From a virus, in IMG/VR virus record IMGVR_UViG_3300020221_000005, positions 39,352-103,351 of that record: a DNA stretch of 64,000 nucleotides; one strand, written 5' to 3'. Position numbers and translations under genes: made by a program. Below, piece after piece: positions 1-37,953 of the stretch (positions are counted from its first letter, which is position 1; the number at the start of each line of letters is the position of its first letter). A model generated the notes under the pieces. That model worked only from the letters and a program-made list of their open reading frames with translations. It searched no databases and was not told the DNA's origin.

Positions 1-301
1 ATTTTTGCGTGGGTTGAATTGGAATGCTAAAGTTATTATTTCAGATGAGTCGCAGAACATGACTACTAAAGAATTGGTGACATTGGTAACCAGAGTTGGA
101 GAGTTCAGCAAATTATTTATATTAGGTGATCCGGATCAATCTGATATTGGAAACAAGAGTGGGTTTAAAAAAATGATTGAATTGTTTTCGGATGAAGATA
201 GTCGAGAAAACGGAGTATATACTTTTGAATTTACTGAGGATGACATTGTTAGGTCTAAACTGGTTAAATTTTTAATTAAAAAAATGAAAAAGATGGGTTA
301 A
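1..301 (+). CDS. phoH: PhoH-family ATPase, C-terminal part (gene starts before the window)
   Basis: (F/L)RG..., Walker B IISDESQN, LVTRVGEFSKLFILGDPDQSD and EDDIVRSKLV are the PhoH C-terminal motifs; the frame is open to the window edge. Confidence 0.92.
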   Translation, partial: FLRGLNWNAKVIISDESQNMTTKELVTLVTRVGEFSKLFILGDPDQSDIGNKSGFKKMIELFSDEDSRENGVYTFEFTEDDIVRSKLVKFLIKKMKKMG

Positions 302-322
302 AGACTATTTATCTTCTGATAT

Positions 323-2134
323 ATGTCTAATAAAAAAATTACTGAATTGACTCCAATGACGTCTGGAAGTCTTGATCCTCAGGACTTATTAGTGGTGGTA
401 GATAGAAGCTTCTCTGAGACCAAAAACATGAGCATACATGAGTTTTCTGGATATTTGTCCAAAAAAGTCATACCCGAAGAAGCCGTTCACGCATTAAATG
501 CGGAATCGGCTGAAATTTCTACTGTGTCAGAAAGAGCATTTATAGCAGACAGTGCTTTAACAGCAAACACCGCGTCTTTTTCTGATAAAGCGGAACTATC
601 TAGTGTGGCAGAGGTCGGCGGAACTCCTTTTAATTCGTTCCTCATACGTTCTTATACAACGCAAAACAGAGACGCTTTGCAGTTCACCACCAAAAACGGA
701 AGTATTATATATAATTCCGATACATCGGCATTTCAAGTGTTTGAAGGTGGTGTGTGGAAAAATTTAATAGTTAATTCTGCTGGAGATGGTAATTTTACCA
801 ATTTAACGGCGAGCAACATTCTTGCAATCAGTGCAATCAGTGGCAGTACGTTGCATGGCACCACATCGATCACGTCGCCGATAGGCAACTTCACCAACCT
901 TACATCGAACAATCTTACAGCGAACAATATTACATCTCCAACCGAAGCCTACGAAGCACGTATTGGAAATCCAAACCAAATAGCTCAGTTTCTTTATAGA
1001 AAAAATCAACCAAATTTTCTTAATGATAATCAAATAAATGCACTTGATTACTCATATGCGTCAGTTGTAATAGCAGCAACTGGCTCTGAAAATCTTGGAG
1101 GATTAAATATGGCGTTGGCAATTGGCGGAACCAGACGTGCAAAAAACGTGTTTCAGACAACCGGCGAATTAGGATTTCACATATTTGATAAAGCTGATCA
1201 AAAATTATCACAAAGCTTGATTGCATCTATAGGAGCATTTGCCGAATCTACTGCTAGTGGAGACAGAGGTGGAAATTTGGCATTTTTTACGGTAAAATCT
1301 GGATCCAATAACAATTCTCCAAAAGAAGCAAGAGTCGTAATTACACATGATGGAAAATTTGGAGTGGGAATAGTTCCAACAGCGTCAATGGGCGTGTGCA
1401 CAATAAGAGGAGACTCGTCCGTATTTAATGTTTTATCCAGCAGTGTGTTACACGTAATTAAACATGATGCGGAGTTGGGATTTGACGCGGGAATTTATAT
1501 CTCGTCAAATCCCCATAATCAAAACGCAGGAAGAGGTGGAGGTATTACATTTCAAAATTCCGATGTTTGTACTGCAGGTATTTATGGTTTAAGAACCTGC
1601 GGGCAGACGGGTGGACCTACCAATTGTTGGGGTAGCGCATTATCATTTTACACACATAATGACGTGGACTATAACGTATTTAACAGTACATTTACTGAAA
1701 AGATGCGTATCAATCATAAGGGTGATGTTAATATTCATAGTGGAAGTCTCAATGTCAATAGTGGAAGTCTCAATGTTAATGGTCAAATTGCAGGAAAATT
1801 TTTCACCTTGCCTGGTACGTTTGGCAATGCAAGCGTAACAACCGCTTCAGTTACAGCTTCTACTAATAGTGTGTTACAAATGACTGTAAGCGGCACATTT
1901 GCTATAATGATAACTTCTTCTGCGATTCCTTCGGCTGGCTCAAATTTTACTTTAATTTTAAACCATACTAGTCCTGGTTATACTGGAGCAATTACATTTT
2001 CGGCAGGTCAATTTGCTACCGGCAGTAACTACGTTCCTACGTCAACTTTAGTCAGACGTTCTGTTTTTGTTTTCGTTTCTGATGGATCCAAGCTTCTTGA
2101 ATGTTCTAGAAATACGGGTATTACTTCTTCCTGA
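323..2134 (+). CDS. tail fibre/appendage-like virion protein
   Basis: N-terminal KKITELT...DLLVVVD typical of phage fibre proteins; A-x-x-A repeats, GSIIYNSD...FQVFEGGVW shoulder motif, EKMRINHKGDV beta-spiral repeats; late motif TATTTATC at 306. Confidence 0.65.
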   Translation: MSNKKITELTPMTSGSLDPQDLLVVVDRSFSETKNMSIHEFSGYLSKKVIPEEAVHALNAESAEISTVSERAFIADSALTANTASFSDKAELSSVAEVGGTPFNSFLIRSYTTQNRDALQFTTKNGSIIYNSDTSAFQVFEGGVWKNLIVNSAGDGNFTNLTASNILAISAISGSTLHGTTSITSPIGNFTNLTSNNLTANNITSPTEAYEARIGNPNQIAQFLYRKNQPNFLNDNQINALDYSYASVVIAATGSENLGGLNMALAIGGTRRAKNVFQTTGELGFHIFDKADQKLSQSLIASIGAFAESTASGDRGGNLAFFTVKSGSNNNSPKEARVVITHDGKFGVGIVPTASMGVCTIRGDSSVFNVLSSSVLHVIKHDAELGFDAGIYISSNPHNQNAGRGGGITFQNSDVCTAGIYGLRTCGQTGGPTNCWGSALSFYTHNDVDYNVFNSTFTEKMRINHKGDVNIHSGSLNVNSGSLNVNGQIAGKFFTLPGTFGNASVTTASVTASTNSVLQMTVSGTFAIMITSSAIPSAGSNFTLILNHTSPGYTGAITFSAGQFATGSNYVPTSTLVRRSVFVFVSDGSKLLECSRNTGITSS

Positions 2135-10434: not shown

Positions 10435-12399
10435 ATGGCAACTATATTAGATAAAAATTTTAAACCTCAGGCAAGAGAAGTAAAATATCTCGGTCGAGAT
10501 TTTAATCAAATTAAACAAAATTTAATAAATTTTGCAAAACAATATTATCCTAAATCGTATAAAGATTTTAGTGAAGCTTCTCCTGGAATGATGTTTATAG
10601 ACATGGCATCATATGTCGGAGACGTTCTTTCTTTTTATATTGATTATCAGTTCAAAGAAGGACTTATAGAATTTTCAGAAGAACGAAAGAATGTAATAAA
10701 TTTGGCAAAATATTTAGGATATACTACAAAACCATCTAAACCATCAATTACTACTTTAGATTTATACATGATCGCTCCAGCCAAAAGAAATTTGGACGGA
10801 AAGTTTTCGCCCGACGAAAGATACATGGTAAGTATTTCGGAGGGAATGGAGGTTGTTTCTTCGACAGGAGTTTCATTTTTAACAACCGACGAGGTGAATT
10901 TTTCTTTAAAAAGTGAACTTTTTCCTAGAACCGATGAAGTATTTTCTAGAAATGATGTCGGTGAGCCTGAATTTTATTTATTAAAAAAGTCTGTTCAAGC
11001 TTATAGTGGTAAAAAAATAACTAAATCTGTTATAGTGGGATCTGACGAACCAAATTTAAGAATTGAATTCACTGAGAATAATATTATTAAAATTTTAAAT
11101 GTAAAAGATGCGGATAATAATACGTGGTATCAAGTAGATTATCTGGCTCAGGATTTAATTTCGTTATCGGTTGAAAATAACCAATACGATTTTGAAAAAT
11201 TTTCAAAGTTTAAATCTACCGTTCCTAATATTATAAGATTCTTACGGACCAATAGAAGATTTACAGTGAATGTAGATGAAAACAATAAAACGTTTTTACA
11301 ATTTGGTCCATCTACAGATAGTATAGAAGAAGAACTTTTGGTGCCAAATTCCGACAACATAGGAGTTGGTTTTTCAAATATAAGTAAATATAATTTGACA
11401 CTAGACCCTACTTCTTTTTTGAAGTCTAATGCATACGGATTGTCGCCGTTTAACACTACGTTAGAAATAACATATGTTGTTGGGGGTGGAATAGAATCTA
11501 ATGTAAACGTCGGCGATATTACAAAAGTAAGTAAAATAGAATTTATAGATTTACATGAATATTTACCGACCGAAGCGGCATTAATAGGCACTATAAAAAA
11601 TAGTTTAAAAGTTGAAAATTCAATTTCTGCTATAGGAGGTTCTGGACCCGAAACTATAGAAGAAATAAAAAATAATGCCATTTTTAATTTTGCTGCACAA
11701 GATAGAATAGTTACTAAAGAAGACTATATTGCTAGAGTTTTTAGTATGTCGCCTGAGTATGGAAAAATTGCTAAAGCATATGTTACAACGGAAAACGATT
11801 TATATACTAATAATACATCTTTTATTACAGGATTAATAGACAAAAATAATAACATAATTGTCGACGAAAAAAATAAAGATTTTAGAAAAATTAATTTAGA
11901 TGGTGTTAATCCGAATGCTATAAATTTATATGTATTAACATATAATGAAAATAAAAACTTAGAAGTAGCAAATGAAGCACTGACATACAATCTTAGAAAT
12001 TATCTATCTAGATATAGAATGTTATCTGATAGAATTAATATTATCGACGCGTTTATTATTAATATAGGAGTAAATTTTACATTGTTAACATATTCTAATT
12101 ATAATAAAAAAGAAGTATTAAATAACTGTATCGATGCAATAAAGAATTTTTTTAATATTGATTTGTGGCAAATTTCTCAACCAATAAATATAAATCAGTT
12201 GGAGTTGGAAATTGCAAAAATAGAAGGAGTTCAATCTGTGGCAGATATAGAGATTGTTAATATAATCGATTCCGGCTATTCAATTTGTGAATACGATTTG
12301 AAATCCGCCACTAAAAATAAAATAATATATCCTCCTATTGATCCTGCTATTTTTGAGATTAAAAATCCAGACATAGATATCAAGGGAAGGACATTATAA
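10435..12399 (+). CDS. gp6: baseplate wedge subunit (gp6/baseplate J-like)
   Basis: DFNQIKQNL, MASYVGDVLSFYID, LAKYLGY, GGSGPETIEEIK, QDRIVTKEDY. Confidence 0.9.
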   Translation: MATILDKNFKPQAREVKYLGRDFNQIKQNLINFAKQYYPKSYKDFSEASPGMMFIDMASYVGDVLSFYIDYQFKEGLIEFSEERKNVINLAKYLGYTTKPSKPSITTLDLYMIAPAKRNLDGKFSPDERYMVSISEGMEVVSSTGVSFLTTDEVNFSLKSELFPRTDEVFSRNDVGEPEFYLLKKSVQAYSGKKITKSVIVGSDEPNLRIEFTENNIIKILNVKDADNNTWYQVDYLAQDLISLSVENNQYDFEKFSKFKSTVPNIIRFLRTNRRFTVNVDENNKTFLQFGPSTDSIEEELLVPNSDNIGVGFSNISKYNLTLDPTSFLKSNAYGLSPFNTTLEITYVVGGGIESNVNVGDITKVSKIEFIDLHEYLPTEAALIGTIKNSLKVENSISAIGGSGPETIEEIKNNAIFNFAAQDRIVTKEDYIARVFSMSPEYGKIAKAYVTTENDLYTNNTSFITGLIDKNNNIIVDEKNKDFRKINLDGVNPNAINLYVLTYNENKNLEVANEALTYNLRNYLSRYRMLSDRINIIDAFIINIGVNFTLLTYSNYNKKEVLNNCIDAIKNFFNIDLWQISQPININQLELEIAKIEGVQSVADIEIVNIIDSGYSICEYDLKSATKNKIIYPPIDPAIFEIKNPDIDIKGRTL

Positions 12400-17800: not shown

Positions 17801-19800
17801 AAAATGAATTTTGCGTCGATCCAATTGACAAAAAATTTAGTTTTTATTTATCAGGATCATATAATGAAAAATTTAATAGTTTAGGTGCAATTACGGCTTT
17901 TGGAAATCCAAACGAAAAAATAGATTTAATTTCAGAACTTAGTAACATACCGATCGTTAGTAGAGAGGCCATTTTACAAGGGGTAATTTCTGAGAGTTTT
18001 GGTAACGTTGGTGATATAACCGATTTAGTTACAGAATTTGATTATAATGATTTCTTTAGATTTACGGAGTTGCAACAATATTCACTCAGTAAGTTTTATG
18101 GTTGTTTGGATAAAATTACCATACAAAAAACCCCGATTTCAGACGAGAACTTTTATACAAAATGTAAAAATTTTAATTCTTATTATCAGGGCCAACCGTC
18201 TTCGAGTTACGACGATATTTTGTTTAGATTTAATTTAGGCGTTCCGATAGATATTATTTCTGGTTCTTTTTTAGAAGACGGATATAAGGTAAATAATGTA
18301 AATCCACGTTATAATAACATATATGCAGCCGTTCATAATGTAGTGGGAAATAATTATTACAATCGTTTTAATACGTCAAGTTGTGTAAGCGAATCATATT
18401 CTATATTTCCGCATCAGACTCGTGAATTTAATATTAGGAACGAATATTTTACAGCAGAAATAGGTCCTAGTAGATTCGAAAATGATAAAGTAAATAAAAG
18501 TGTGAGATATACATACGATGGCACTCTTTCTCCATTGAAATCTCAAACTTATAAAAATAAGAATGAATACTATGTAGATACTAATAAAATTGGGGTGTTT
18601 TTATCTCCCATTCATGAGCGAAATAAATCTATATTAGATTTTTTTGGAAATTATGAAATTGTTTCTTCAATTTCAGATCCAAGAGAACGTTTTGGAAGAA
18701 AATATTTAGGGCTTGAGAAATTAAGAGAATATTATTATGGAGAAAATTACATAAATAAAATTTTATTTAACGAATTATTTACAATTTATAAAACGTATGT
18801 TGACGGAAGTATTTTTGATACTCTTAAAAACTTATTACCCGCTAGAAATAAAGTTTATACCGGGCTGTTAATAGAACCTACAATTTTAGAAAGAAATAGG
18901 ATTGAAGAAAAACCTGTCAATATAACCAATTTACACGTTTTAACTGCCAGTATTCAATTATCTAATATCTTAGGTGACGTAGATAGTTCTACTATTAGTT
19001 ATCTCACAAATTCTATTGTCGACTTAAAATTATATAAAAACAGTTTTGTGTTTGGTGATTATTCGTTTGAAGGATACAAATCTATAACTGATGTTCCTGA
19101 TTTGTATATGAATAATATATTTGTCGACCATAATGGATTGGCTGACGTAGATGGAAAAAAATATTTTGCATATAGTAAAATTAATAAAAAAACTGTGACT
19201 TATTCTTCGGATAATATTACGTCTTCAAATGTTACTAAAGATTTTATTTCTGTAGAATTAATTAATAGCGGCAGTTCGTTTACAACATCTTCTGCACATA
19301 ATATACTTTCTGATCTGCGAAATTTTCCACATATAAGTAGAAAAAATTTATCGCTTAGAAAAGAACTGTATTATGTTACAGGCAGTCTTGCTGACGTAGA
19401 TTTACCTCCGAGTTATTTCGGTAAAGGTAGACAAAATAGATTTACAACAATTAATGAATCTGGAAACGATAACCGAGAACCAATAATTAGAATTGATACT
19501 AGCCAAGCGGTGATAGGAACTCCGATCACCTCTTCAATATCTAGATTACAACTTCTACCTTGGTTTGGAAATCTAAGAAAACTACCGAGATTTGCTTCGC
19601 CATACCTTGGATCTGTAATAGACATAGAAACCAAAAATAGATTTAATACGGCTAAATTGTATATATCGAGTGGAGAAATAATCTTAAACGGCTCTCAATT
19701 AATAAATGAAAATTCCACCACGACTATAAAACAATATACTAAATATAGAATTCCAGAAGATTTTCAACCAAATGTGTTATTTGGTGGGAGAGGATTGTAA
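14857..19800 (+). CDS. large baseplate wedge protein (gp7/P2 gpI-like motif)
   Basis: FLSMIGHTFDNIYLY and IWKRILNNLPSIYKTKGTEECLRQIFSIYG (gpI-like KGT motif), VDYTNFSNFVVFSSA; baseplate context. Confidence 0.65.
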   Translation: MLSIITQSSDKINQISFLSLKDSELLSLSSSREYFFGEQDTDLISVGIFDSQKQLISSGEITGSSSNLKVYYDYEDVDGNIFKDYYFPIKSNLIQDLNKNILISIEDIIDSQSVTNNNFYLSITPTSPFFSQKNPLIIKEISNSRKEIKFIKNFADESVINDISVTFNGNQILLNGNQEIKIKKGTVYNLNFTNQDINIVRFSKTKDGKFFSGGSDYVKNILYKQSTKQIILDATEDIPNTLFVYNRNFKDNNAIIQFEGEVDSKIFKLNTEFLALEQKSFINKKLCSEFEYYLNSFSLSEIFSKTKDNYETEINSLKFLFSLVDDDGVMGILRSIYYGESYYDATLRKQKKLLGIKDYIINYLKFNYEFINTFDYTRTIFSNINNFTCNKRLLFFNPNVNISKQSKQQYVDSFRYVSTVMSEFLTYVINSIELQYLSKFKSPLKNTIKFKENELFFILNSKIQNDEFLVKLKDPIPDNYNAGDFCEISNNSYTPFFQIINFETDSIKSTIKLTRPNFNIDINEPSTRTIGSQYFNNNELKLNRIDNNKINADKKIKNINVDYTNFSNFVVFSSANLRIKIFQNKIIKETLLDEENQKLKSLDSSGSSVNDKFNVHKKIEDNNKEIDEIYSGFDGYESYLYNTNKFIYNSTLKKFTESKTNKSSSDFVDQLLNDSTYYDKNNRDSLINNTPEYVYLNENNDEYLKFLSMIGHTFDNIYLYISSIGIYKKVGEDYSTGISSDFINHILSSFGFDTPPNVSGILENASIEECYLDKFKKADLKNSISLDKKTKIIWKRILNNLPSIYKTKGTEECLRQIFSIYGIPNNMILVKEFGGGYTKNEISSSYLVDEKEYLLEFVGGDDEYVEIKNLTPYKSIDFKLFIDKEKYKNLNRLIVPIHGTFNDLGDPVYSLGFIKFTEKLGSLYFIIKNENFLPVVYITSPFYMFNGEVMNILLRKNEASKKFEHPIDENILPIQYDIVIHQNEFCVDPIDKKFSFYLSGSYNEKFNSLGAITAFGNPNEKIDLISELSNIPIVSREAILQGVISESFGNVGDITDLVTEFDYNDFFRFTELQQYSLSKFYGCLDKITIQKTPISDENFYTKCKNFNSYYQGQPSSSYDDILFRFNLGVPIDIISGSFLEDGYKVNNVNPRYNNIYAAVHNVVGNNYYNRFNTSSCVSESYSIFPHQTREFNIRNEYFTAEIGPSRFENDKVNKSVRYTYDGTLSPLKSQTYKNKNEYYVDTNKIGVFLSPIHERNKSILDFFGNYEIVSSISDPRERFGRKYLGLEKLREYYYGENYINKILFNELFTIYKTYVDGSIFDTLKNLLPARNKVYTGLLIEPTILERNRIEEKPVNITNLHVLTASIQLSNILGDVDSSTISYLTNSIVDLKLYKNSFVFGDYSFEGYKSITDVPDLYMNNIFVDHNGLADVDGKKYFAYSKINKKTVTYSSDNITSSNVTKDFISVELINSGSSFTTSSAHNILSDLRNFPHISRKNLSLRKELYYVTGSLADVDLPPSYFGKGRQNRFTTINESGNDNREPIIRIDTSQAVIGTPITSSISRLQLLPWFGNLRKLPRFASPYLGSVIDIETKNRFNTAKLYISSGEIILNGSQLINENSTTTIKQYTKYRIPEDFQPNVLFGGRGL

Positions 19801-21607: not shown

Positions 21608-24600
21608 ATGATTAAAAGTCTAAATAAAGATGACATAAATTCAGTTCCATTTGTTGTATCAAAAAGATGGAGAGCCACAAGCAAATCTAATATAAATTTA
21701 TTGGGGGATGTGGATTTCGAGTATCTATTTACTGACGCCAATTTTGTTTCAGAGTCTAAAACTCATAAATTTATATCAGAATCTAAATCTTTTACAAATA
21801 AGTTTGTTGCTGAAAATACGGTTCAGTCAGTTGGTTTGCTTTCAACAAAGCCGTTTGCTATAGAATATCTTGATTATGGTGATGGTTGGCAATTTGGTTG
21901 CACTTCTTCTTTGGTCGCCGAACCAACATATTCAATAATAATGGAAGATACAAGTAGTGGTCAAGTGGATTTGCATGTGCAGGGATCTTCGGATTATTGG
22001 TTACTCGAATCATATGCAGATATAAGTAACAGCAAATCTCCATACAACGGACCTTCGTATAGATTTGATTTGGCTATGGATGTGCCGTTTACAAATTCTA
22101 TATGTAATCTTTGTTTAGAACAAACGGAAGATAATTTTTTAACTATAGAAGATGGAATAAAGACTGAACAATTTATAAAATTCGATCCAGACATCGAGGT
22201 TCAAAATTTGAGTGATACATATAAAAGAATAATATACGATCAGACTAAAAATTTATTTTATAACGATTCTAAAGATCCAACTAAGTTATTGGGATTAGAA
22301 AATTTAGACGTGATTTTGGACGGAAAAAAAAGAGTTATATATGACAGAATTAAAGTAGTAACTATCCCACAAGCTTATTTTGGTGATAAAATAATGGAAA
22401 ATAGCGTGGAAATAATAGAAAATTCTAGCGATCAAACTTACACAGTAGTGGATGATGGCAAAGGCAATTTACATGTAAAAGAAAAAGTATTCGGCGTAAT
22501 TACATCGGATCAAAATAAAGATATAAACCATTTTAATTCTTGTTCTTGTGTAAATTTTGATGGGGTCGAATTCTTTTTAAACGAAGATTCTGTGACGGAA
22601 TTAAATTGGCAATATTACAAAAATAATATTCTTTTTGTCGATAGAAACTTCGCACACGATTTTTACATTTATGGATATGATACTACAAATAAAATAAAAC
22701 CAAAAGAAGTAGAGTCTTATCTAATGTATATTGGAGATGCTGGTTTTGACGTTGGCGGTGGAATACAACACAGCGAAAACTCTGATAGTGCTTCGGTTAT
22801 GGCTATGGCTATACAAACCGATGACAAAGTGCTTATCGGCGGAAGATTCACCAGTTACAACAATACACCAAGCTCTATTCTCGCTCGAATAAACATTGAC
22901 GGTACTTTGGATGGACCCTTCAACAACAATCTTAATCTTTCCTTCAGAGGTAACGTATATAACTATGTTACATCTATTTTGATTTATCCGACGAGCAGTA
23001 ATAATTCAGGCAAAATTCTTATCGGCGGCAATTTCATTTATTCCGGAAAGCAAGGAATTGTTCGAATTAACTCCAATGGTACGCTTGATGAGACATTCAA
23101 CGGTGTAGGTGTTGGATTTAATAACGTAGTGACTGATATCGCATTACAGTCTGATGAAAAAATCATTGCGGTTGGGAGTTTCACCAGTTACAATGGTTAC
23201 ACCGTTCCTTCAATAGTTAGATTGAATAAAAATGGCGAAATCGACACCACGTTTACATCTTCTGGCTACTGGACAAATCAACCCAATCCACCTACTCCAG
23301 CCTTGAATATTCTGAACAAGGTAATTGTCTATCCCACGGGAAATAATACAGACAAAATTTTGATCGGTGGAGAGTTTATTGCTCTTACATCATCGGGCGG
23401 GCCTGTTAACCGCGATCGGTATCTTATACGACTCAAAAAAGACGGTGAGTTTGACAACGACTTCGGATATTACAACCACGCGGGTGGAATTAATGATATG
23501 GTATTATTACCAGATGAAAAAATAATTATTGCCGGCAGTTTCGGTTCTAATCCACACGGAATTCAACGACTTAAACCGCCGACGACGAACATAACGGTTA
23601 GCCGTGATGAAACCTTTAACATTCCACCGACACAGACTGGCACTGAAGCTTATCCTTCAAGATCATTTTCTGTTGCTTTACAGTCGGACGGTAAAATACT
23701 TCTCGGCGGCATTTTCAATAGATATGATAACACACCAGAACAACATAGTATCCTTCGTCTAAACTCTGATGGTGAGCTCGACACTACCTTTAGGAGCGGG
23801 TTGCCGCTCGCCGAGGGGCTGCTTAAAGCTGTTGATTCCATCAAACCACTGTCAGATGGTAGAATAATGATAGGCGGAAAGTTTTCCACATATGATGGTC
23901 AGAGTGTCAATAATATTGCTCGGCTTAATAACAACGGAAGGCTTCAAACTACGCAGTCGGTTTCGTTAACTAAAATACCTCACGATGAACTTTTGGGTAA
24001 TTTTAGAAAAATAGAGTGTGGAGATAATTTTGCCGCAATTTTAAAAACAAACGGTCAGTTAGTTGTTTGGGGAGAAAGTGAGGTGTCTAAATCTGTTCCA
24101 ATTTTTGGTGGCCTACTTATTGATATATCGGCGGGAGATCATCATATGATTGCTTTAGATGAAAACGGTAAAGTTTATGTTTGGGGAAATTCGTTGTATA
24201 CTGGTTCTATACCAACTTTTGTCGATAATAATTACTCTTATATAAAAGCAGGTCCAAGTGGAAGTGTGATTATTCATAAAAACGGATCAATTTATGGATT
24301 TGGACACAACAGTTTAACAAGTTCATTTTTTACCGCATCAAAAATTCCACAAAAATCTAATGTTAAAAAAATATCATTTGGAAAATCGCATGGAATGATT
24401 TTAGATAATGATGGTAATTTGTATTCTTGGGGGGCGAACGATACATACAGTCAATCAAAAATTCCAAATTTAGAAAATGTCAACATATCGGATGTTCAAT
24501 GTGGAGATGATCATACTATTATTTTAAAAAATAATGGTGAGTGTGTGGCGTGGGGAAAAAATGATTATTCACAATCTTTTATACCGTTTGGACAAAATAT

Positions 24601-25597
24601 TAATTCGTCGTGGTCTAATCCTCCTCCGCCAACGTCGGTCGCGACAAAGGGTTTAATTGATGGAGTTTCGATTGACGCTAAAGCCGACAGAAGTGCGGTT
24701 TATATAAAAAAATATACAGATGTTAGTCTGTTGCAATCTGAATTTGGACATGCATTTAAATTTGGATTTTCTTGGGGTGAACATCCTTTTGTAACAAAAT
24801 ACATGTTTAAAAGTATTGGTTTGGGTAGAAATTTTACTTTTTTAGACCCAAATATAAGATATCAAAAATTTATTTATAATAATGATTATACTTCGCCTAA
24901 AGTGATGAAAGGAACTTTTGATTTTTTTACCGACGTCAATTTTACTATAAATTTAAATACTACAAAACAATATAATTTAACCAACTATGACGTTAAAATT
25001 CTACCCACGCACGAACCGCATGGAACTCGACTATTTTCAGGATTAGAAATTTTAACTAAAAAATATAATAATAAAGAAAAATATTCATATATTGCTTCAA
25101 ATAAAGCACAATCTAATTTTGAAAATGAGATACCAAATATAAATAACATTTCTATGTCAGTGGGTGTCAAGGAATTTTATTTAAATACAGGATCTTTGAA
25201 TTTAGCGGATTTACATTATGGTGGTTATAGAAACGTTCCCGTTTATATTACACAACTAACAAGTGACATTTCAATGGGACAAACAGGTTCTAGAAATTAT
25301 AATGTAACTATGACAGGAAAGTTTTTAAATTATAATAAATCTCAGAATAAATTAACTGTATATATTGATTCGGCGACAGACAACTTGGTTCATAACAATT
25401 GGGCAATAGATTTTGAAAAAATTAACGTATATGAAATTATAGATGAACTTGATTTATCCAATTCTAAATTTGATAAATTTTATTTTAATGAAATATTTTT
25501 ATATACAACGTCATCTAATATGAATTCCATAATAAATGATGAACAATTTTTTATTAAATATATAAAGAATAATACAAGTGATAATGTATATGCATAA
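21608..25597 (+). CDS. large virion protein: N-half of the baseplate fold plus Delta-60 (DUF5122-like) and RCC1/BLIP-II beta-propeller repeats
   Basis: IPQAYFGDKI...DDGKGNL; repeats of AxQxDxKILIGGxFxxY...RLNxDGxLDxTF (about 22790-23945); IxxGxxHxxxLxxxGxxxxWG repeats (about 24000-24600). Confidence 0.75.
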   Translation: MIKSLNKDDINSVPFVVSKRWRATSKSNINLLGDVDFEYLFTDANFVSESKTHKFISESKSFTNKFVAENTVQSVGLLSTKPFAIEYLDYGDGWQFGCTSSLVAEPTYSIIMEDTSSGQVDLHVQGSSDYWLLESYADISNSKSPYNGPSYRFDLAMDVPFTNSICNLCLEQTEDNFLTIEDGIKTEQFIKFDPDIEVQNLSDTYKRIIYDQTKNLFYNDSKDPTKLLGLENLDVILDGKKRVIYDRIKVVTIPQAYFGDKIMENSVEIIENSSDQTYTVVDDGKGNLHVKEKVFGVITSDQNKDINHFNSCSCVNFDGVEFFLNEDSVTELNWQYYKNNILFVDRNFAHDFYIYGYDTTNKIKPKEVESYLMYIGDAGFDVGGGIQHSENSDSASVMAMAIQTDDKVLIGGRFTSYNNTPSSILARINIDGTLDGPFNNNLNLSFRGNVYNYVTSILIYPTSSNNSGKILIGGNFIYSGKQGIVRINSNGTLDETFNGVGVGFNNVVTDIALQSDEKIIAVGSFTSYNGYTVPSIVRLNKNGEIDTTFTSSGYWTNQPNPPTPALNILNKVIVYPTGNNTDKILIGGEFIALTSSGGPVNRDRYLIRLKKDGEFDNDFGYYNHAGGINDMVLLPDEKIIIAGSFGSNPHGIQRLKPPTTNITVSRDETFNIPPTQTGTEAYPSRSFSVALQSDGKILLGGIFNRYDNTPEQHSILRLNSDGELDTTFRSGLPLAEGLLKAVDSIKPLSDGRIMIGGKFSTYDGQSVNNIARLNNNGRLQTTQSVSLTKIPHDELLGNFRKIECGDNFAAILKTNGQLVVWGESEVSKSVPIFGGLLIDISAGDHHMIALDENGKVYVWGNSLYTGSIPTFVDNNYSYIKAGPSGSVIIHKNGSIYGFGHNSLTSSFFTASKIPQKSNVKKISFGKSHGMILDNDGNLYSWGANDTYSQSKIPNLENVNISDVQCGDDHTIILKNNGECVAWGKNDYSQSFIPFGQNINSSWSNPPPPTSVATKGLIDGVSIDAKADRSAVYIKKYTDVSLLQSEFGHAFKFGFSWGEHPFVTKYMFKSIGLGRNFTFLDPNIRYQKFIYNNDYTSPKVMKGTFDFFTDVNFTINLNTTKQYNLTNYDVKILPTHEPHGTRLFSGLEILTKKYNNKEKYSYIASNKAQSNFENEIPNINNISMSVGVKEFYLNTGSLNLADLHYGGYRNVPVYITQLTSDISMGQTGSRNYNVTMTGKFLNYNKSQNKLTVYIDSATDNLVHNNWAIDFEKINVYEIIDELDLSNSKFDKFYFNEIFLYTTSSNMNSIINDEQFFIKYIKNNTSDNVYA

Positions 25598-28500
25598 AAA
25601 TATTTACATAGATAAAAAAGATTTTGGTTATTCGGTAGCTATAAGCGACGTATACGCTTTAATAGGAAATCCATCTTTTGAGTCTTTTAACAGTTCATCT
25701 GCAAATCCAATTTTAGAAGAGGGTTCGGTGGATGTGTATAAATATAATTCTAATACTAGTTCAACTTTTATATATGATAGAACAATAAAATTATCTTCTT
25801 TGAAAGAAGATTATTATGCGTTATATACAGAAAATTATACCACAAGCTCAAACTCTATTGCGTCACTATCGGGAAGTTATTCGTTATCGACAGAAACGAA
25901 CACTTCAGGTTCTAATTCTGGATCTGTTGCCATATTTAACAACTATGAATTTTTATTAGCAAACTCAGAAGACATGTTTACATTATCATCTGACTTTGGT
26001 AGAAGTTTAGATATATATGAAAATTTATGTGCGATAGGTTGTACTAGAATGACTTATACGTTTTTAAACATGGATGAAGTAATTAGAAACGAAGAAGGTT
26101 GCATAGAAATTCACGATCTTTCAAAAGAAAAATCAAAGACTCAAACTATATTTGCTCCTATCAATTCGTCGTTTTTAAATTTTACATCTATAGATACAGG
26201 ATCAAATTCATTTGGATGGTCAGTATCTATCAATAAAGATTTTCTTGTGGTGGGAAGTCCTTATACAAAGAATAGTGGGTCGGTTTTTATATTTAAACGT
26301 GACTCGGACGAATATACCTATCATAGTTACATTACTTCTAGCGGACAAAACTTGTTTGGTTCTTGTTTGAAATTAGACAAAAACTTTAATAAGTTGATAG
26401 TAGGAAATGGAAGTATTATCGATAATAATTCAAAAGCTTATTTATATGAATATGTATTAACCACAGATAAATGGGAGTTAATTCAAGAATTTACATCTAA
26501 TAAAACCGTCGAAAATCTAAAAATTTTACCCGTACCACAACACGATCCTGTAATTGCTCTTCCTGACGGATATGGCAATTCAGTATCTATTTACTGTTCT
26601 TCTTCTACAGATGTGGCGGTCGCGGTTGGTGCGCCATACGACAGAATTTATAAAGAATTTAGTGGTTCAAATTGTTATCGAGATGGTTGTGTATATGTTT
26701 ACAATTCAAAAAATTGTATATTGCCAAGCGGAAAGTGCGAATCTACTATTGTCGGATCAAATATAGTTAAGGGGTTATTTCATTTTCCAAATGTGTTTCA
26801 TAGTGCGAGAGCCGTTCTTGTTCAGCCAGATGATTCGATATTTATTGGTGGAGAATTCATATATTATAATGCTGAATCTAACTTTCGTAATCGACTGGTA
26901 AAACTTTCTAAAGACGGCGAACTTACATCTTTAACCGCTTCACTTTTCGGTAGCACCGTGCGCGACCTGATTAAAACCGGTAGTAAAATAATTACAAGAG
27001 GTATACATCCTCGTTTGGGTCGGTTTAATTCTAGCGACGGTAGCACCGATAACGATGATAATACGTTTTTTAATAATGTCGAGTCTGTTATAGCTGACGG
27101 TAACGGTTTGAGCTGTGTCGCGGTTACCGCTGACAATAAGATTTTAATTAGTGGAAATTTTACTAGAGGTGTGAAAGAAATCACAGCAGGTTTTTATCAC
27201 ACCGTGGTTATAAAACGAGATAACACCGTAGCGGCGTGGGGATTAAACAACGAGGGCCAAACCACCGGCACACCAACAACCGCCCCGCCTCACATCGAGA
27301 CGGGAAATCCGGTCACATTGAGCGGCCAGGTTTTGAGAAACGTGGTGGCCATCGCGGCGGGTTGGGCTCACACCGTGGCCTTGAAGTCGGATGGCACCGT
27401 GGTGGCGTGGGGAAGCAACGACTATGGCCAAACCACCGTGCCCTTCAACCTGAGCGGCGTGGTGGCCATCGCGGCGGGTGAGAATCACACCGTGGCCTTG
27501 AAGTCGGATGGCACCGTGGTGGCGTGGGGAAACAACTACTTTGGCCAAACTACCGGCACACCAACAACCGCCGCTCCTTACACCGCGACGGCAAATCCGG
27601 TCACATTGAACGGCCAGATTTTGAGCGACGTGGTGGCCATCGCGGGGGGTTTGTATAACACCGTGGCCTTGAAGTTGGATGGCACCGTGGTGGCGTGGGG
27701 CTCTGGCCAAACCACCGTGCCCGCCGGCCTGAGCGGCGTGGTGGCCATCGCGGCGGGTGAGGAGCACACCGTGGCCTTGAAATCGAATGGCACCGTGGTG
27801 GCGTGGGGAGCCAACTACGCTGGCCAAACCACCGTGCCCGACGGACTGAGCGGCGTGGTGGCCATCGCGGGGGGTGAGCGTCACACCGTGGCCTTGAAGT
27901 CGGATGGCACCGTGGTGGCGTGGGGAGGGAACGACTTTAGCCAAAGCACCGTGCCGTCAGTCATCAACAACACTACTACAGGAAGCAATTACATATCTAG
28001 AATAAACGGCACCACGGGTGAAATTGACCCTACATTTTCACATACAGGTTCAGGACCATTTAGGCCTGCGCAGCGTCGGCCTGTCCCCGCCCCGGCAATT
28101 AGTGCTATTCTTCCGTTATCAAACAATAAAATACTTGTCGGAGGTCATTTACCGTTTTACGACAATGTAACGACGGACCATATCGTTCGGCTCAACTCGG
28201 ACGGCACCCTCGACCAAACTTTTACGGCAAAATGTAAAGGAGGCATAGTAAACACAATAGTCGGACAAATCGATAATAAAATACTTGTCGGAGGAAGTTT
28301 CACTTCTGTTAGTATCGATGGGGTTAACTATTCCAAAAGAGGAATATTTCGACTTAATGAAAACGGCACGTTTGACACTTCTTTCGTCGGGTCAGGAATA
28401 GGTGCTGGTCAAGATATTCATAAAATTTTTACTGTTCCATCCTCCGGTAAAATTATGATTATTGGCTCCTTCACCACATTCAACGGCATATCAATTAATA

Positions 28501-30071
28501 AGATCGCGCGACTACACAACAATGGTGATCTTGATACTAGTTTTAATCCTGGCGAATCAACAAACGCAATCATTCTTGATCTTGATTTTCAAAGTGATGG
28601 TAAAATGGTTCTTGTCGGAGATTTTTCTAAGTATAATGGAAAAAATTGTAATCGAGTAGTTAGAATCACTCGTAACGGTGATTTTGATAGTTCGTTTTTA
28701 GAAACTTTTTTATATAATACTCCGTCGACCTGTTCAGTTAATGAGTTGGGTTGGAAAGAGACAAAATTATTTGGTGATGTAGATTCGTTTAAGTTTAATA
28801 GATTTGGTCATTCGGTAGACATCTCCGAAGACAAACTTTTAATTTCTTGTCCCAAGTTTTTATCTGAATTTTCATCTTCTTACGTACAAAATACTTTATT
28901 TAAATCAGTCGATTGTGATGATCTTACCGAAAATGATTATTTGGGAATGTTTTATATATATGATAAACAAGAAGAAAATTGGAACAATATATATGCTAAA
29001 TTTAAACCTAGAAAAAGATTTGGTTATCCGTTTAACTTTTTTGCACATGATGTTTCTATACATAAAAAAAACTTGATTGTGGGATCTCCCATAGCTTTGA
29101 CCGACTCGAATAGAATCATTGAAATAGTTGAAGATAAAGAAAACGTCGCGGAAAATTTACATGGAAATTTTTCTATTTTTAATTTAAATGAATTTGAATC
29201 ACACCATCATGTGGGAAATGTGTTTTATAGAAATGGTAAAATGGTATTTTCAAATTCGGCGTCTGTATTTGATAATATGTTTAATAACGATGTAAACGAT
29301 GAACCAGTTTATGATATTTCATATAACAGCAAAACTTCTTTGTATGAAAAACAAATAATTTGTACGGTGAGTCCAGGCGAGTTTAATTATTCTACAAATC
29401 CGACTGCCCATGTTCCAAGTTTGATTCAATTGGATTTGAACAAAAACGGAAAATTTGATTTTCAAGACTGCGACAAAATTTTGAGGGGTATATATAAAAA
29501 GTTCAACGGAAATGAACAGTGGTGGAATTTGTTACAATTGGAATATCCAATTGGGTTTGAAAATGTTGTAGAAAAGAGTAAATTTGAATATTATCTAACA
29601 CAATCAATAAAGAACGAAACTTTGTATAATTTAACAGATTCTATACTTACTACCGAAGAATATAATTATATTGTTAATAATTTAGATAGCACTTTGGATA
29701 TAAACCAAGATGGTTTGACTGATAATATGGATTTAACTATACTGTGGAAATATTTCGCAGATACTTTGACCGCTGATAACTATGAAATGTTCACTACTAG
29801 TAAATCTACGAGCTCACGGAGTATATATTCAGTGGCTAGGGACTATTTGGATACAATTACTGGCAAAAGTCATAAACATCTAATCAAAGATGTATTTCAT
29901 CGTCGATATGTTACAAGTTCAAATTTTACTACACAGTCATTTTTATCTCCATATATTACCACTATAGGATTATATAATAACTTAGATTTGATTGGCGTGG
30001 TAAAGTTAGGGACGCCTATAAAAAACGAAGGAAAATTTCCTTTAAATTTTATAATACGTTTTGATATTTAA
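25584..30071 (+). CDS. large virion protein: FG-GAP, Delta-60 and RCC1 propeller repeats, EF-hand/dockerin-like loops and C-half of the baseplate fold
   Basis: FGYSVAI/FGWSVSI..LVVGSP FG-GAP repeats; Delta-60 repeats; AIAAGxxHTVALKSDGTVVAWG repeats; VGNVFY...EFNYSTNPT...PYITTIGLYN; start ATG 25584 or 25590 overlaps the upstream stop. Confidence 0.78.
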   Translation: MYMHKNIYIDKKDFGYSVAISDVYALIGNPSFESFNSSSANPILEEGSVDVYKYNSNTSSTFIYDRTIKLSSLKEDYYALYTENYTTSSNSIASLSGSYSLSTETNTSGSNSGSVAIFNNYEFLLANSEDMFTLSSDFGRSLDIYENLCAIGCTRMTYTFLNMDEVIRNEEGCIEIHDLSKEKSKTQTIFAPINSSFLNFTSIDTGSNSFGWSVSINKDFLVVGSPYTKNSGSVFIFKRDSDEYTYHSYITSSGQNLFGSCLKLDKNFNKLIVGNGSIIDNNSKAYLYEYVLTTDKWELIQEFTSNKTVENLKILPVPQHDPVIALPDGYGNSVSIYCSSSTDVAVAVGAPYDRIYKEFSGSNCYRDGCVYVYNSKNCILPSGKCESTIVGSNIVKGLFHFPNVFHSARAVLVQPDDSIFIGGEFIYYNAESNFRNRLVKLSKDGELTSLTASLFGSTVRDLIKTGSKIITRGIHPRLGRFNSSDGSTDNDDNTFFNNVESVIADGNGLSCVAVTADNKILISGNFTRGVKEITAGFYHTVVIKRDNTVAAWGLNNEGQTTGTPTTAPPHIETGNPVTLSGQVLRNVVAIAAGWAHTVALKSDGTVVAWGSNDYGQTTVPFNLSGVVAIAAGENHTVALKSDGTVVAWGNNYFGQTTGTPTTAAPYTATANPVTLNGQILSDVVAIAGGLYNTVALKLDGTVVAWGSGQTTVPAGLSGVVAIAAGEEHTVALKSNGTVVAWGANYAGQTTVPDGLSGVVAIAGGERHTVALKSDGTVVAWGGNDFSQSTVPSVINNTTTGSNYISRINGTTGEIDPTFSHTGSGPFRPAQRRPVPAPAISAILPLSNNKILVGGHLPFYDNVTTDHIVRLNSDGTLDQTFTAKCKGGIVNTIVGQIDNKILVGGSFTSVSIDGVNYSKRGIFRLNENGTFDTSFVGSGIGAGQDIHKIFTVPSSGKIMIIGSFTTFNGISINKIARLHNNGDLDTSFNPGESTNAIILDLDFQSDGKMVLVGDFSKYNGKNCNRVVRITRNGDFDSSFLETFLYNTPSTCSVNELGWKETKLFGDVDSFKFNRFGHSVDISEDKLLISCPKFLSEFSSSYVQNTLFKSVDCDDLTENDYLGMFYIYDKQEENWNNIYAKFKPRKRFGYPFNFFAHDVSIHKKNLIVGSPIALTDSNRIIEIVEDKENVAENLHGNFSIFNLNEFESHHHVGNVFYRNGKMVFSNSASVFDNMFNNDVNDEPVYDISYNSKTSLYEKQIICTVSPGEFNYSTNPTAHVPSLIQLDLNKNGKFDFQDCDKILRGIYKKFNGNEQWWNLLQLEYPIGFENVVEKSKFEYYLTQSIKNETLYNLTDSILTTEEYNYIVNNLDSTLDINQDGLTDNMDLTILWKYFADTLTADNYEMFTTSKSTSSRSIYSVARDYLDTITGKSHKHLIKDVFHRRYVTSSNFTTQSFLSPYITTIGLYNNLDLIGVVKLGTPIKNEGKFPLNFIIRFDI
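27236..27960 (+). repeat. GC-rich RCC1-repeat cassette (five near-identical units starting about 27342, 27459, 27630, 27738, 27855)
   Basis: Repeated gtggtggccatcgcgg...accgtggccttgaagtcggatggcaccgtggtggcgtgggg; abrupt GC increase relative to the flanks. Confidence 0.93.
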
Positions 30072-35097: not shown

Positions 35098-37953
35098 ATG
35101 CATGGTGGTAACAAAAAGGGAACAGTATACAATTTATTAAGTCGTGATGTGGATATCATCGACAAATCTTATAGATCCGACTATTTTATTGTGTCGGACT
35201 TGGGTTATACATTGACATCAGGAAAAAACTTTTTTACTATAAATGGTTCGAATAAATTAAAACCTAACGCGGCAATATTATTAGAAATTGTCGACTCTGA
35301 AAATAACGTTTTATATTATGAAACTGCAAAAAGTGGTTATTTCAAATATTTAGATACTACAGATTTGATCGTTGGCGTACATGTATATGAATCTACGCCT
35401 ATTGGGTTTGGCACAGTAACATTACTTGGAACAACGGTAGATGGGAAGTCAGTTCGATGGTCTACAAATATAAAAATAAACTCTAAATTAGAAAACTCTT
35501 CTAGAGTAGTGTTTTTCCAGGATCCAAAAATTGAGATTTCTGAATTTTTGTCATTTATTTTAAATCAAAATATCTCTCAACAGCAACAATTTATTAATGA
35601 AATTTCAGGAAATATATATTGTTATAGTAATTTTCCAAAAGCATATTCAGATATTAAATCTATAGATTTTACTAAATTTGATTCCGATTATCGATTACGT
35701 TATATAGATACTTCTTCTGTGAATTTTTTAAACTTATTTTCTAAAGATAATATAAATAATGAAATAATTCTTAATATAAAAGAAATAGCTTATTTAGATA
35801 ATAATGTATTAAAAACAGCTTCGTTAAATATCACAGAGTCTTTTAATGTAAAAAACGTAATAAATAATTTTGAATTGCAATTAGATAGACCATTTATATA
35901 TAAAATAAACACCGTTAATCAAGTTGTGCCAATTATTTCCGCGTCTTTTAATCATAAATTCTTTTCGAATATATATATCACTTCATCGGGTCTTACAGGA
36001 AGTGGAGATGGAACTCCTGCTCCGACTGTTTTTTTAAATCAACAAATAGAAGGTGAAACTAAATTTTTAAAAGAATCATTTTTAGATGTAACTTATAAAA
36101 ATTTAAAAACTCTTACAGGAAAAGTTCATCGTCACAAAATTTATAGACGAAGTTTAAATAAAGCCTCTGATTTTGAATGTATTGCGGATGAACCGTTGTT
36201 GGAAAAAGAATTTATAGCCGATACCTCCACGATCAACCGATTTTATTCAAATATAGGAGAATTTTATAATTTAGACCACATAAATAGATATTATTATACA
36301 AGTTCTTCAGATTTATCACTGTCACACAGTTCGGTTGAAGTTTTAAATTCTCTTGTGTGTAATATAAAAGATTTGAATCTTGACCAATCTAGATACATCA
36401 TCATAAAAAATGACACGTCTTTGAAAACTAAAAATGAACATTCTTCATCATATATAGACTATGACGATGCATCATTTTTAATTCAAACAGGATCATCATA
36501 TGATTCTAATTTTATAAAATTATATAAAAATGCTGATTATTTATTCTCGGCTAATTTAGAAATTGAAAAAATCTCTGCATCTTTAGAAAGTAAGCTATTA
36601 TTTTATTTTACTGGCTCCTACAACACTTCATCTGCGATAGTAGAAAAAAATTATTCGGTGGATAAAGGATTAATTTTACATCAATATGTTTTACCAATAG
36701 GAACTAATTTTAAAAGATTTACTAAAAAAGATTTTAACGAATTGTATTTTTTAAACGATTATGTTGGTACTATCGTAATTGTTCCTGTAAACATTAAAAA
36801 ATTTAGATTGGATAATCTTTCTTTGAAGTCTCATGCAGAACGTGGATTTTCTACTGATTCTTTTTTTACAAGAATTTCCTGTCCCGTCACAATTAAAAAC
36901 GAACAATTTGAAATAAAATCGGAGTTGTTGGATATTAATAATAATTCTATATATTCCGATTTAAACAAGATTATAGCCGTGGATAAATCCGGCGAAACTT
37001 TATTTAGAAATATCTCGGGCGTTGTTAATGCAAATGCTGAAACTGTACTCAATCTTATCGGATCCGGATCAGGAAAAATAAGTTTTAGCGCATCTCGCGA
37101 TGGCCAAGCGGCAACTTTATCTGTTATAGAAAGCTTTGATGTGATAATGGGCAGCCTTAATGGGGCTAGATTTTTTCAAGTGGAAAAATCGGGAAATGAA
37201 ACTTATATGAAGTTGTCTGGATCTTTTTATTTAACAGGTTCTCAATATATAAAAGATGGAGGCATCAGTGCTAGCGGTGCAATCAGTGGTAGCACGTTAC
37301 ATGGCACCACATTAATTACGTCGCCGATAGGCAACTTCATCAATTTAACAGCAAGCAACATCAGTGCCAGTAACTTAATCAGTGGTAGCACGTTACATGG
37401 CACCACATTAATTACGTCGCCGATAGGCAACTTCATCAATTTAACAGCAAGCAACATCAGTGCCAGTAACTTAATCAGTGGTAGCAAGTTACATGGCACC
37501 ACATTAATTACGTCGCCGATAGGCAACTTCATCAATTTAACAGCAAGCAACATCAGTGCCAGTAACTTAATCAGTGGTAGCACGTTATATGGCACCACAT
37601 TAATTACGTCGCCGATAGGCAACTTCATCAATTTAACAGCAAGCAACATCAGTGCCAGTAACTTAATCAGTGGTAGCAAGTTACATGGCACCACATTAAT
37701 TACGTCGCCGATAGGCAACTTCATCAATTTAACAGCAAGCAACATCAGTGCCAGTAACTCAATTAGCGGAAATTTATTTGGAACAAGTAGTTATGCTAAA
37801 ACCAGCAGTCTCGGTTATTTTGTGTTTAATCATGGGCATAATAATAATTTTACCGCTTCTAATTTCGGTCAGTCTGCCAGAACTGCGTCTGGATATATTA
37901 GAGCGAATGTAAATGGATCAGATATTTATATACCGTATTATTCAAATATATAA
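35098..37953 (+). CDS. virion structural protein with C-terminal fibre-like 32-aa repeats
   Basis: Late motif at 35077; beta-rich body; five repeats of ISGSTLHGTTLITSPIGNFINLTASNISASNL; terminal GYIRANVNGSDIYIPYY trimer-tip-like motif. Confidence 0.65.
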   Translation: MHGGNKKGTVYNLLSRDVDIIDKSYRSDYFIVSDLGYTLTSGKNFFTINGSNKLKPNAAILLEIVDSENNVLYYETAKSGYFKYLDTTDLIVGVHVYESTPIGFGTVTLLGTTVDGKSVRWSTNIKINSKLENSSRVVFFQDPKIEISEFLSFILNQNISQQQQFINEISGNIYCYSNFPKAYSDIKSIDFTKFDSDYRLRYIDTSSVNFLNLFSKDNINNEIILNIKEIAYLDNNVLKTASLNITESFNVKNVINNFELQLDRPFIYKINTVNQVVPIISASFNHKFFSNIYITSSGLTGSGDGTPAPTVFLNQQIEGETKFLKESFLDVTYKNLKTLTGKVHRHKIYRRSLNKASDFECIADEPLLEKEFIADTSTINRFYSNIGEFYNLDHINRYYYTSSSDLSLSHSSVEVLNSLVCNIKDLNLDQSRYIIIKNDTSLKTKNEHSSSYIDYDDASFLIQTGSSYDSNFIKLYKNADYLFSANLEIEKISASLESKLLFYFTGSYNTSSAIVEKNYSVDKGLILHQYVLPIGTNFKRFTKKDFNELYFLNDYVGTIVIVPVNIKKFRLDNLSLKSHAERGFSTDSFFTRISCPVTIKNEQFEIKSELLDINNNSIYSDLNKIIAVDKSGETLFRNISGVVNANAETVLNLIGSGSGKISFSASRDGQAATLSVIESFDVIMGSLNGARFFQVEKSGNETYMKLSGSFYLTGSQYIKDGGISASGAISGSTLHGTTLITSPIGNFINLTASNISASNLISGSTLHGTTLITSPIGNFINLTASNISASNLISGSKLHGTTLITSPIGNFINLTASNISASNLISGSTLYGTTLITSPIGNFINLTASNISASNLISGSKLHGTTLITSPIGNFINLTASNISASNSISGNLFGTSSYAKTSSLGYFVFNHGHNNNFTASNFGQSARTASGYIRANVNGSDIYIPYYSNI
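37282..37761 (+). repeat. 96-bp tandem repeat x5
   Basis: Units at 37282, 37378, 37474, 37570 and 37666, nearly identical. Confidence 0.95.

Follow-up and report, generated by a model that had tools for sequence, protein, structure and literature searches.

A GC-rich, bacterial-type RCC1 propeller nested inside two further propellers of a phage protein, and its probable repeated capture

Introduction

Phage adhesins are modular, and RCC1 repeats are among the modules met in large phages. The jumbo coliphage phAPEC6 encodes eleven RCC1-like proteins (PMC7247149). RCC1-type families of PHROGs (13857, 7220, 16766 and 4219) are partly annotated as tail proteins, and in jumbo phages RCC1-like proteins take the form of entire genes or of terminal domains with the phage's own composition. 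Among bacterial propellers of the RCC1/BLIP-II kind, which have seven blades, BLIP-II of Streptomyces exfoliatus (PDB 1JTD, 3QHY) is a free secreted protein with short blades of 36-39 amino acids (aa). Near-identical blades have been described for recently amplified bacterial propellers (PMC9218822). Giant surface proteins of Verrucomicrobiota combine RCC1 repeats with Ig and LamG domains. Where an integrin alpha chain has an I domain, this von Willebrand A domain sits between the second and third blades of its FG-GAP propeller. Here we describe a gene at positions 25584-30071 (+ strand) of a 64,000-nucleotide stretch, hereafter the window, of the IMG/VR virus record IMGVR_UViG_3300020221_000005. 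Its predicted product holds an RCC1/BLIP-II-like propeller inside a Delta-60/DUF5122 propeller that is itself inside an FG-GAP propeller.

This nested protein resembles each of these systems and departs from each. With BLIP-II, the closest structure, the innermost cassette shares the short blades, with recently amplified bacterial propellers it shares the near-identical blades, and the common phage form has seven of them; but it is internal to another propeller, and the window's copy has six blades. With the RCC1-like proteins of jumbo phages it has in common the presence of RCC1 repeats in a large phage and the character of a modular, exchangeable adhesin, whereas it is internal, triple-nested and of foreign composition (GC at third codon positions, GC3, of 0.8 versus 0.25), and its bacterial source population could be identified. 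As in integrin alpha with an I domain, a seven-blade FG-GAP scaffold has a domain looped out between blades; however, the phage inserts are propellers at two levels, and the likeness is one of architecture only, with no sequence relation to the I domain. The Verrucomicrobiota surface proteins (L197, P0020, P0042 and P0070 in our set) share with the cassette, at the DNA level, the repeat framework, exact 44-mers, the order of blade lengths and the hypervariable positions, but in a bacterial context (Ig_3, Laminin_G_3, SBBP or kinase domains) and not on a phage scaffold. In the literature on RCC1 in phage tails, on Verrucomicrobiota phages and on host-derived receptor-binding modules we found no description of this case, and the papers of relevance were just those on phAPEC6 and on repetitive propellers cited above. 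We regard the finding as the known process of phage domain capture in a new form, not as a new kind of system.

Results

The gene codes for 1495 aa from the ATG at 25584, a start that agrees with cluster member P0365. The open frame extends from a GTG at 25578 to 30071 and comprises 1497 aa, along which residues are numbered here. Pfam recognises FG-GAP_2 in this frame (E 2e-15). Only two parts of the protein align to the orthologue of a syntenic relative, L002 (817 aa): the N-terminal part of the FG-GAP scaffold, matching FG-GAP_2 (aa 5-380, positions 25590-26717; 70% identity to aa 1-369 of the orthologue), and the remainder of the scaffold with a conserved C-terminal domain (aa 1059-1497, positions 28752-30071; 82% identity to aa 379-817), nine residues of the orthologue lying between the two. 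Of these domains the L002 orthologue contains FG-GAP_2 alone, and it lacks a GC island. Searching with a profile of the C-terminal domain yielded 20 viral loci, conserved at 35-80% identity; RCC1 motifs, Delta-60 motifs and GC islands are all missing from about 12 distinct orthologues, whose lengths are 820-1030 aa. These insert-free orthologues, L002 included, indicate that the 678-aa insert (aa 381-1058, positions 26718-28751) is derived. An initial annotation of this DNA, made from the sequence alone, had seen the FG-GAP repeats stop at about 26700 and resume at about 28790; the alignment to L002 sets the interruption at 26718-28751, and the comparison with related phages that it proposed revealed neither inner layer in L002 or the other distinct orthologues.

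As modelled by AlphaFold2 (AF2), the L002 orthologue, which is free of the insert, matches headpieces of integrin alpha (Foldseek E ~1e-13; TM score ~0.33-0.36 as normalised on the 817-aa query) as well as FG-GAP proteins of phages and giant viruses. Together with the FG-GAP_2 profile, this integrin-like fold assigns the scaffold to the FG-GAP/integrin-alpha-type propellers. On the model, the window's insertion site (site A) is a hairpin turn (L002 aa 371-374), and a second site (site B) is a loop (aa 491-499). In the C-terminal domain we also noticed two DxNxDG-type motifs without a Pfam match, at ~29424-29480 (LDLNKNGKFDFQD) and 29688-29750 (LDINQDGLTDNMDLTILWKYF), which resemble calcium loops of dockerins or EF hands.

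The outer parts of the insert belong to a Delta-60/DUF5122 propeller of repeated units of ~50-60 aa, which Pfam (PF17164) detects in five stretches (E 2.1e-48). The left part (aa 381-529, positions 26718-27164, + strand) ends in the first half of a split unit (...AVTADNKILISGNFT); the right part (aa 804-1058, positions 27987-28751, + strand) opens with the second half (NYISRINGTTGEIDPTF), which four intact units follow. A hidden Markov model (HMM) of the unit, built from nine intact units, finds in this protein the four intact units, one N-terminal unit and the two halves of the split one. Left of the cassette, HMM positions 10-29 match at aa 511-530, and positions 32-51 match on its right. 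When aa 530-803 were deleted in silico, a single Delta-60 unit covering positions 10-51 was restored (i-E 1e-6). The two half-matches and their restoration argue that the RCC1 block sits within the hairpin of one Delta-60 blade.

Structure prediction of the nested propellers, also proposed at the outset, gave a compatible picture. The AF2 model covers the insert (aa 381-1058) with an overall predicted local distance difference test score (pLDDT) of 73. Its first 130 residues are modelled poorly (pLDDT below 50), and the number of Delta-60 blades is uncertain. The right Delta-60 part reaches pLDDT 89-96, and the residues flanking the RCC1 domain (17..678 of the insert model) align jointly to single 7-8-blade propellers with Z 17-18. 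The unit that the initial annotation had described as cut in two is therefore borne out by its HMM halves and by their rejoining, and the order of nesting, FG-GAP outermost, then Delta-60, then RCC1, is supported by the L002 alignment, the HMM and AF2.

The cassette itself (aa 530-803, 274 aa; positions 27165-27986, + strand) contains six blades at 27180-27965. Six stretches match Pfam RCC1_2 (PF13540) with E 9.1e-61 and 200.7 bits, against a curated cut-off of 22, and these tandem units identify an RCC1/BLIP-II-like propeller. In sequence, no solved structure comes closer than BLIP-II (E 1e-45). AF2 models the RCC1 part with pLDDT 85-94; this part compares with BLIP-II at Z 26 and ~51% identity, and with the RCC1-like domains of UVR8, RPGR and HERC2 at Z ~27 (root-mean-square deviation 2.6-3.4 over 260-273 residues).

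The composition of the cassette is not that of the phage. In 200-nucleotide (nt) segments, GC rises from 0.28-0.40 to 0.60-0.70 between 27200 and 28000, and GC3 within the open frame climbs from 0.17-0.40 to 0.83. Over the whole record the mean GC of 300-nt segments is 0.341 (standard deviation 0.076), which places the cassette island (~0.66) about four standard deviations above it; the 103-kb record has only two islands of at least 1 kb with a GC of at least 50%, and this is one of the two. The cassette has a GC3 of 0.79; the corresponding values are 0.23 for phage genes, 0.26 for the gene's own flanks and 0.75 for Verrucomicrobiota contigs. The relative synonymous codon usage (RSCU) reaches 3.5 for GTG, 1.75 for GCC/GCG and 2.3 for GGC. 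Measured against 22 phage genes, RSCU correlated well for the flanking parts of the gene (r = 0.92) but not for the cassette (r = -0.03); its codon usage resembles GC-rich Verrucomicrobiota contigs, not the phage. These measurements uphold the GC-rich cassette and the dominance of GTG, GCC and GGC codons noted initially, along with the contrast to the AT-rich RCC1 domain of the upstream gene (23966-24608), where GC is 0.30-0.375.

Blades 2-6 have 53-60 of 63 core nt in common, and their differences fall at exactly the two short positions already named in the initial annotation (WA/EN/LY/EE/ER and SNDY/NNYF/S-/ANYA/GNDF). The core of blade 1, at the 5' edge of the cassette (27180-27245, + strand), matches the other cores at 42-44 of 63 nt, and over these first ~65 nt the differences run 13:2 towards A/T. 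Near-identity to donor-type sequences begins only at ~27246, and the GC-rich core of the cassette spans ~27246-27965.

Where might such a cassette come from? In a search of 5.8 billion proteins, the best matches were 52-61% identical, and the named ones belonged to Verrucomicrobiota or Planctomycetota. The top match among species-representative genomes was a metagenome-assembled genome (MAG) of Verrucomicrobiota (66% aa, 72% nt identity), a phylum that accounts for 44 of the 80 best matches there. Three viral contigs and 47 metagenome contigs contain an exact 44-mer of the repeat core, and nearly all of the metagenome contigs come from one project series (Ga01941xx); 42 of the 47 have a GC of 52-65%, with cassette identity of 76-91%. 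One contig that shares the 44-mer, L198, encodes an epimerase 93% identical to proteins of Limisphaerales MAGs, and its named top matches are nearly all Verrucomicrobiota. Genes of the DUF1501, DUF1549/DUF1553/PSCyt and N_methyl (N-methylation-motif) types lie on L198, L184 and L205. By their gene content, the GC-rich 44-mer contigs that we examined are bacterial and belong to Limisphaerales-like Verrucomicrobiota.

The best full-length DNA match is a gene on contig L197 for a surface-type protein with RCC1, Laminin_G_3, Ig_3 (seven copies) and SBBP domains. Five of its blades are collinear with blades 2-6 of the window, in the same order of blade lengths. Nucleotide identity is 88.2% over 209 codons (624 nt), with 12 silent differences and 42 amino-acid differences, the latter mostly at or adjoining the two hypervariable spots, and there is no A/T bias among the differences (31 against 25). 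So few silent differences, with no drift to the phage composition, point to a recent derivation of the cassette from a homogenised RCC1 repeat pool of co-occurring GC-rich Verrucomicrobiota. Cassette DNA had no match among GenBank phages in a distant-mode search. That the module came from a high-GC bacterium had been proposed from composition alone, with Verrucomicrobiota or another PVC group as a guess; the search of bacterial sequences that was then recommended favours both, in that the best full-length match is a bacterial-type gene, the codons are Verrucomicrobiota-like and Verrucomicrobiota lead the genome matches.

The initial annotation treated this one cassette only, and the capture was not a one-off. 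In L004, whose baseplate wedge protein is 70% identical, the orthologue of the same protein carries a 60%-GC seven-blade RCC1 cassette at the loop equivalent to aa 1177, and it has no Delta-60 layer. In L006 (baseplate wedge 49% identical), a 60%-GC cassette lies in the orthologue of another gene, the open reading frame (ORF) at 14857-19800, between window positions 18267 and 18382. The AT-rich contigs (30-39% GC) L061, L192, L200, L208, L210 and L217 run into such cassettes as well, usually at the contig end; L208 is related to the window's phage. A complete 32-kb phage of 54% GC (L003, IMGVR_UViG_3300020183_000288) encodes, at L003:2087-5050, a 987-aa Sortilin/BNR tail-like propeller protein with a C-terminal seven-blade RCC1 domain. 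This domain is 78% identical to the cassette in nt, holds three exact 44-mers and has a GC of 0.66, higher than its own flanks. GC-rich RCC1 cassettes thus recur at other loops and in other genes of related and unrelated AT-rich phages, and their capture appears to have been repeated.

The cassette of L006 starts in a different repeat phase than those of the window, L004 and L061, and the junctions display no target-site duplication or microhomology beyond chance (the longest direct repeat, 7 nt, was equalled in 32% of shuffles). Both features speak against a discrete mobile element, whether an insertion sequence, a miniature inverted-repeat transposable element or an intein-like element. The cassettes look like selected outcomes of recombination with bacterial DNA. 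As a separate observation, the orthologue at L159:6270-8924 carries two additional stretches (44 and 24 aa, following L002 positions 504 and 510), beside the loop that holds the cassette of L004, and this loop may be a preferred place of insertion.

As to the recipient, the source record has 103,351 bases, of which the window is G000:C1:39352-103351, and CheckV estimates its completeness at 34%. The whole record has a GC of 34% and genes on the + strand almost throughout. PHROGs annotates a baseplate wedge protein (10435-12399), a RuvC-like resolvase, a primase and SbcCD-like genes. The closest cultured phages are Microcystis phage Mel-JY01 and Flavobacterium phages vB_FspM_immuto, followed by Rhodothermus phage RM378; identity to the closest ones is 52-53% for the major capsid protein and 35-40% for the baseplate wedge. 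Related contigs are as long as 279 and 365 kb. Therefore, this is a large, AT-rich phage of the myovirus type. The gene of the nested protein is the last of a block that starts with the baseplate wedge gene.

Discussion

We consider it probable that a bacterial binding propeller has been captured repeatedly, and recently, into loops of phage structural proteins. In this lineage the FG-GAP scaffold first gained a Delta-60/DUF5122 propeller in a beta-hairpin between blades, through an older event or from a lower-GC source. Later, and recently, a BLIP-II/RCC1-like propeller entered the hairpin of one Delta-60 blade in frame, its source being the RCC1 repeat pool in surface proteins of co-occurring GC-rich, Limisphaerales-like lake Verrucomicrobiota. 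We speculate that entry took place by illegitimate or repeat-guided recombination, after which selection would have kept in-frame, complete propellers. The adjacent N and C ends of a propeller would let it sit in a loop.

Several points weigh against this scenario. No donor exceeds ~89% identity across the whole cassette, which is too little to name the source gene itself. Concerted evolution, which keeps the repeat framework uniform, inflates similarity and blurs the identity of the true counterpart copy. Blade 1 has no collinear partner in L197, and its A/T-shifted edge is not explained by a single recent capture. The path by which 60%-GC bacterial DNA reached a 30%-GC phage, whose cultured relatives infect Flavobacterium, Microcystis and Rhodothermus, is equally unexplained. 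Finally, PHROGs assigns no structural annotation to the scaffold itself.

What could the cassette be for? A role as a displayed binding module is suggested because the gene ends the baseplate block, the scaffold is of the FG-GAP type, BLIP-II is the nearest structure and each blade varies at two loop positions. The propeller may be presented at the tip of the nested stack and bind a ligand through these two hypervariable loop positions per blade; BLIP-II holds its target in a similar way, with loops on a single propeller face. The cassette would then serve as an exchangeable adhesin or receptor-binding module. FG-GAP propeller proteins of other phages are annotated as virion or hemagglutinin proteins, and by analogy the nested protein may be a virion-type structural-module protein and an adhesin.

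The edge of blade 1 bears on a variant of our explanation that is not exclusive of it. An older, partly AT-shifted RCC1 propeller might already have resided in the Delta-60 loop and have been mostly replaced by homologous recombination with Verrucomicrobiota RCC1 DNA, mediated by the long stretches of identical repeat core. The abrupt change at ~27246, with a diverged, A/T-biased sequence to its left and near-identity to donor-type sequences to its right, is what such an exchange would leave, and the exact 44-mers would serve as recombination substrates. On the other hand, no relative with an AT-rich cassette at the window's site was found, the right edge lacks a comparable A/T shift, and divergent first blades are frequent in propellers anyway. 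We regard prior residence of an older propeller as possible but doubtful.

Alternatively, the cassette may move mainly among co-infecting phages, in which case its bacterial likeness would go back to a shared older pool or to phage-to-bacterium transfer. It is present on at least eight AT-rich contigs and in L003, the complete phage of 54% GC, and two of the phage-side copies come close to the window's (L217 with 88.8% identity over 347 nt, L061 with 94% over 72 nt). The phage copies are not, however, mutually closer than they are to bacteria, L004 and L006 being 67% and 66% identical against 88% for L197. The composition and codon usage of the cassette fit GC-rich bacterial genomes, in which kinase, Ig and secreted proteins contain numerous paralogous copies, and a long passage among 30%-GC phages should have led to an AT shift, as in the old RCC1 domain at 23966-24608. 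Spread between phages as the main route is therefore unlikely.

It could also be argued that the whole 678-aa block of Delta-60 and RCC1 was taken in one step from a bacterial protein in which the two were already nested. Some bacterial proteins, such as P0047, do hold both PF17164 and RCC1 repeats; the orthologues lack both layers together, the left Delta-60 part being absent from all of them; and GC3 is still raised (0.5-0.57) for ~250 nt to the right of the cassette. Yet the Delta-60 parts have a GC of 0.35-0.48 (0.35-0.41 in the left part) and a GC3 mostly of 0.2-0.4, against 0.8 in the cassette. Their best relatives are 39-47% identical, and the named ones are mostly type IX secretion system (T9SS) proteins of Bacteroidota with some from Verrucomicrobiota, not the RCC1 donors; no relative of the Delta-60 part was detected among the viral contigs searched. 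Capture in a single step thus seems quite improbable to us, and the Delta-60 layer would be a separate, older acquisition or one from a lower-GC source.

Could the nesting be an artefact of assembly, with GC-rich bacterial repeat DNA misjoined into a phage contig? Many AT-rich contigs do break within the cassette, the repeat is abundant in the same metagenomes, and the blade missing from the window's copy could be a repeat collapse. But the frame is intact across both junctions, and on either side stand the halves of one Delta-60 unit and of one FG-GAP protein. Moreover, in the protein cluster records on which junction support is based, an identical protein of 1534 aa is present on 10 contigs, the longest of 79,952 bases, and a second 1534-aa member comes from a 27,570-base contig, in addition to the window's form of 1495 aa. 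All three full-length forms (P0296, P0366 and P0365) have the same junctions. Among the 47 metagenome contigs with the 44-mer there is no independent assembly of this locus; the sole related phage, L208, has its cassette in another gene. As the nested protein is on record from at least 12 contigs, a chimera is very unlikely.

The same records bear on blade number. The 1534-aa form of the 10 contigs carries an extra blade, and therefore the common form of the cassette is a seven-blade propeller. The additional 39 aa (117 nt) lie between IAAGWA and HTVALK, at approximately 27369..27370 (+ strand) in the window; flanking repeats are identical, so that this point is approximate by nature and the exact breakpoint cannot be placed. 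Relative to P0296 and P0366 the missing blade falls at 27351-27467; either it was truly deleted between the identical repeats, or the assembly collapsed it.

Finally, it is hardly credible that targeted hypermutation by a diversity-generating retroelement, or selection at the DNA level, produced the GC richness and the variable spots, for although variation is limited to two short positions per near-identical blade, the bacterial copies have the same framework and variable positions, silent-site GC matches the donor genomes, and the 103-kb record, itself 34% complete, contains no reverse transcriptase (RVT_1) match that would make the cassette a target of such an element.

Repeated capture from a bacterial repeat pool does not make the donor the host. 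The initial annotation had suggested that the high-GC bacterium might be the host; this is unsupported and may be wrong, in view of the ~30-point GC gap and of cultured relatives that grow on Flavobacterium, Microcystis and Rhodothermus. The donor need not be the host. We advance only tentatively the broader idea that AT-rich lake phages, probably on low-GC hosts such as Bacteroidota, repeatedly plug BLIP-II-like cassettes from unrelated Verrucomicrobiota into the loops of virion propellers. If so, there would be an ongoing cross-phylum flow of ready-made binding modules, visible before their composition drifts, and the cassettes could be used to trace partners of DNA exchange in nature, while host prediction from shared genes would mislead here.

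The source of new phage adhesin modules is rarely caught; this case offers the donor population together with both the recipient and the empty sites. Whole beta-propellers, it would appear, can enter the loops of other propellers, three levels deep, with the same module type captured repeatedly at different loops and a 30-point GC gap being no bar to transfer. This makes the locus a concrete system in which to study how phages gain binding specificities.

The gene upstream of the nested protein (21608-25597, + strand), which served as a comparator, has a Delta-60 block of its own (22742-23965, GC ~0.42) next to its AT-rich RCC1 domain (23966-24608). Neither L002 nor L004 has this block of 408 aa in its orthologue; that of L002 (908 aa) lacks aa 379-786 but keeps the RCC1 domain. 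The block looks like a second, independent insertion of a module. A recent duplication of Delta-60 blocks between the two neighbouring genes was rejected, as they are only ~30% identical. In two more distant relatives (L154:5925-8933 and L156:5916-8930), one protein of ~1000 aa joins the N-terminal part of the upstream gene (MIKSLSKEDIS...) with the FG-GAP scaffold without anything in between; the window's two giant genes therefore seem to derive from a single gene that was split and then padded with modules.

The record's only other large GC island lies at G000:C1:21723-23090 (L221:724-2091), 16 kb before the window, and is a gene of the DUF1552 type with 455 aa and ~57% GC. Its closest match among 301 sampled Verrucomicrobiota genomes is only 42% identical, and with this sample a link to the donor of the RCC1 cassette was not established. 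Elsewhere in the window, tandem units of ~96 nt occupy 37263-37770 of the ORF at 35098-37953, and a related stretch lies at 788-917 in the ORF at 323-2134. These units are 80-92% identical to repeats in metagenome contigs L208 and L216, and may represent another shared in-frame repeat module.

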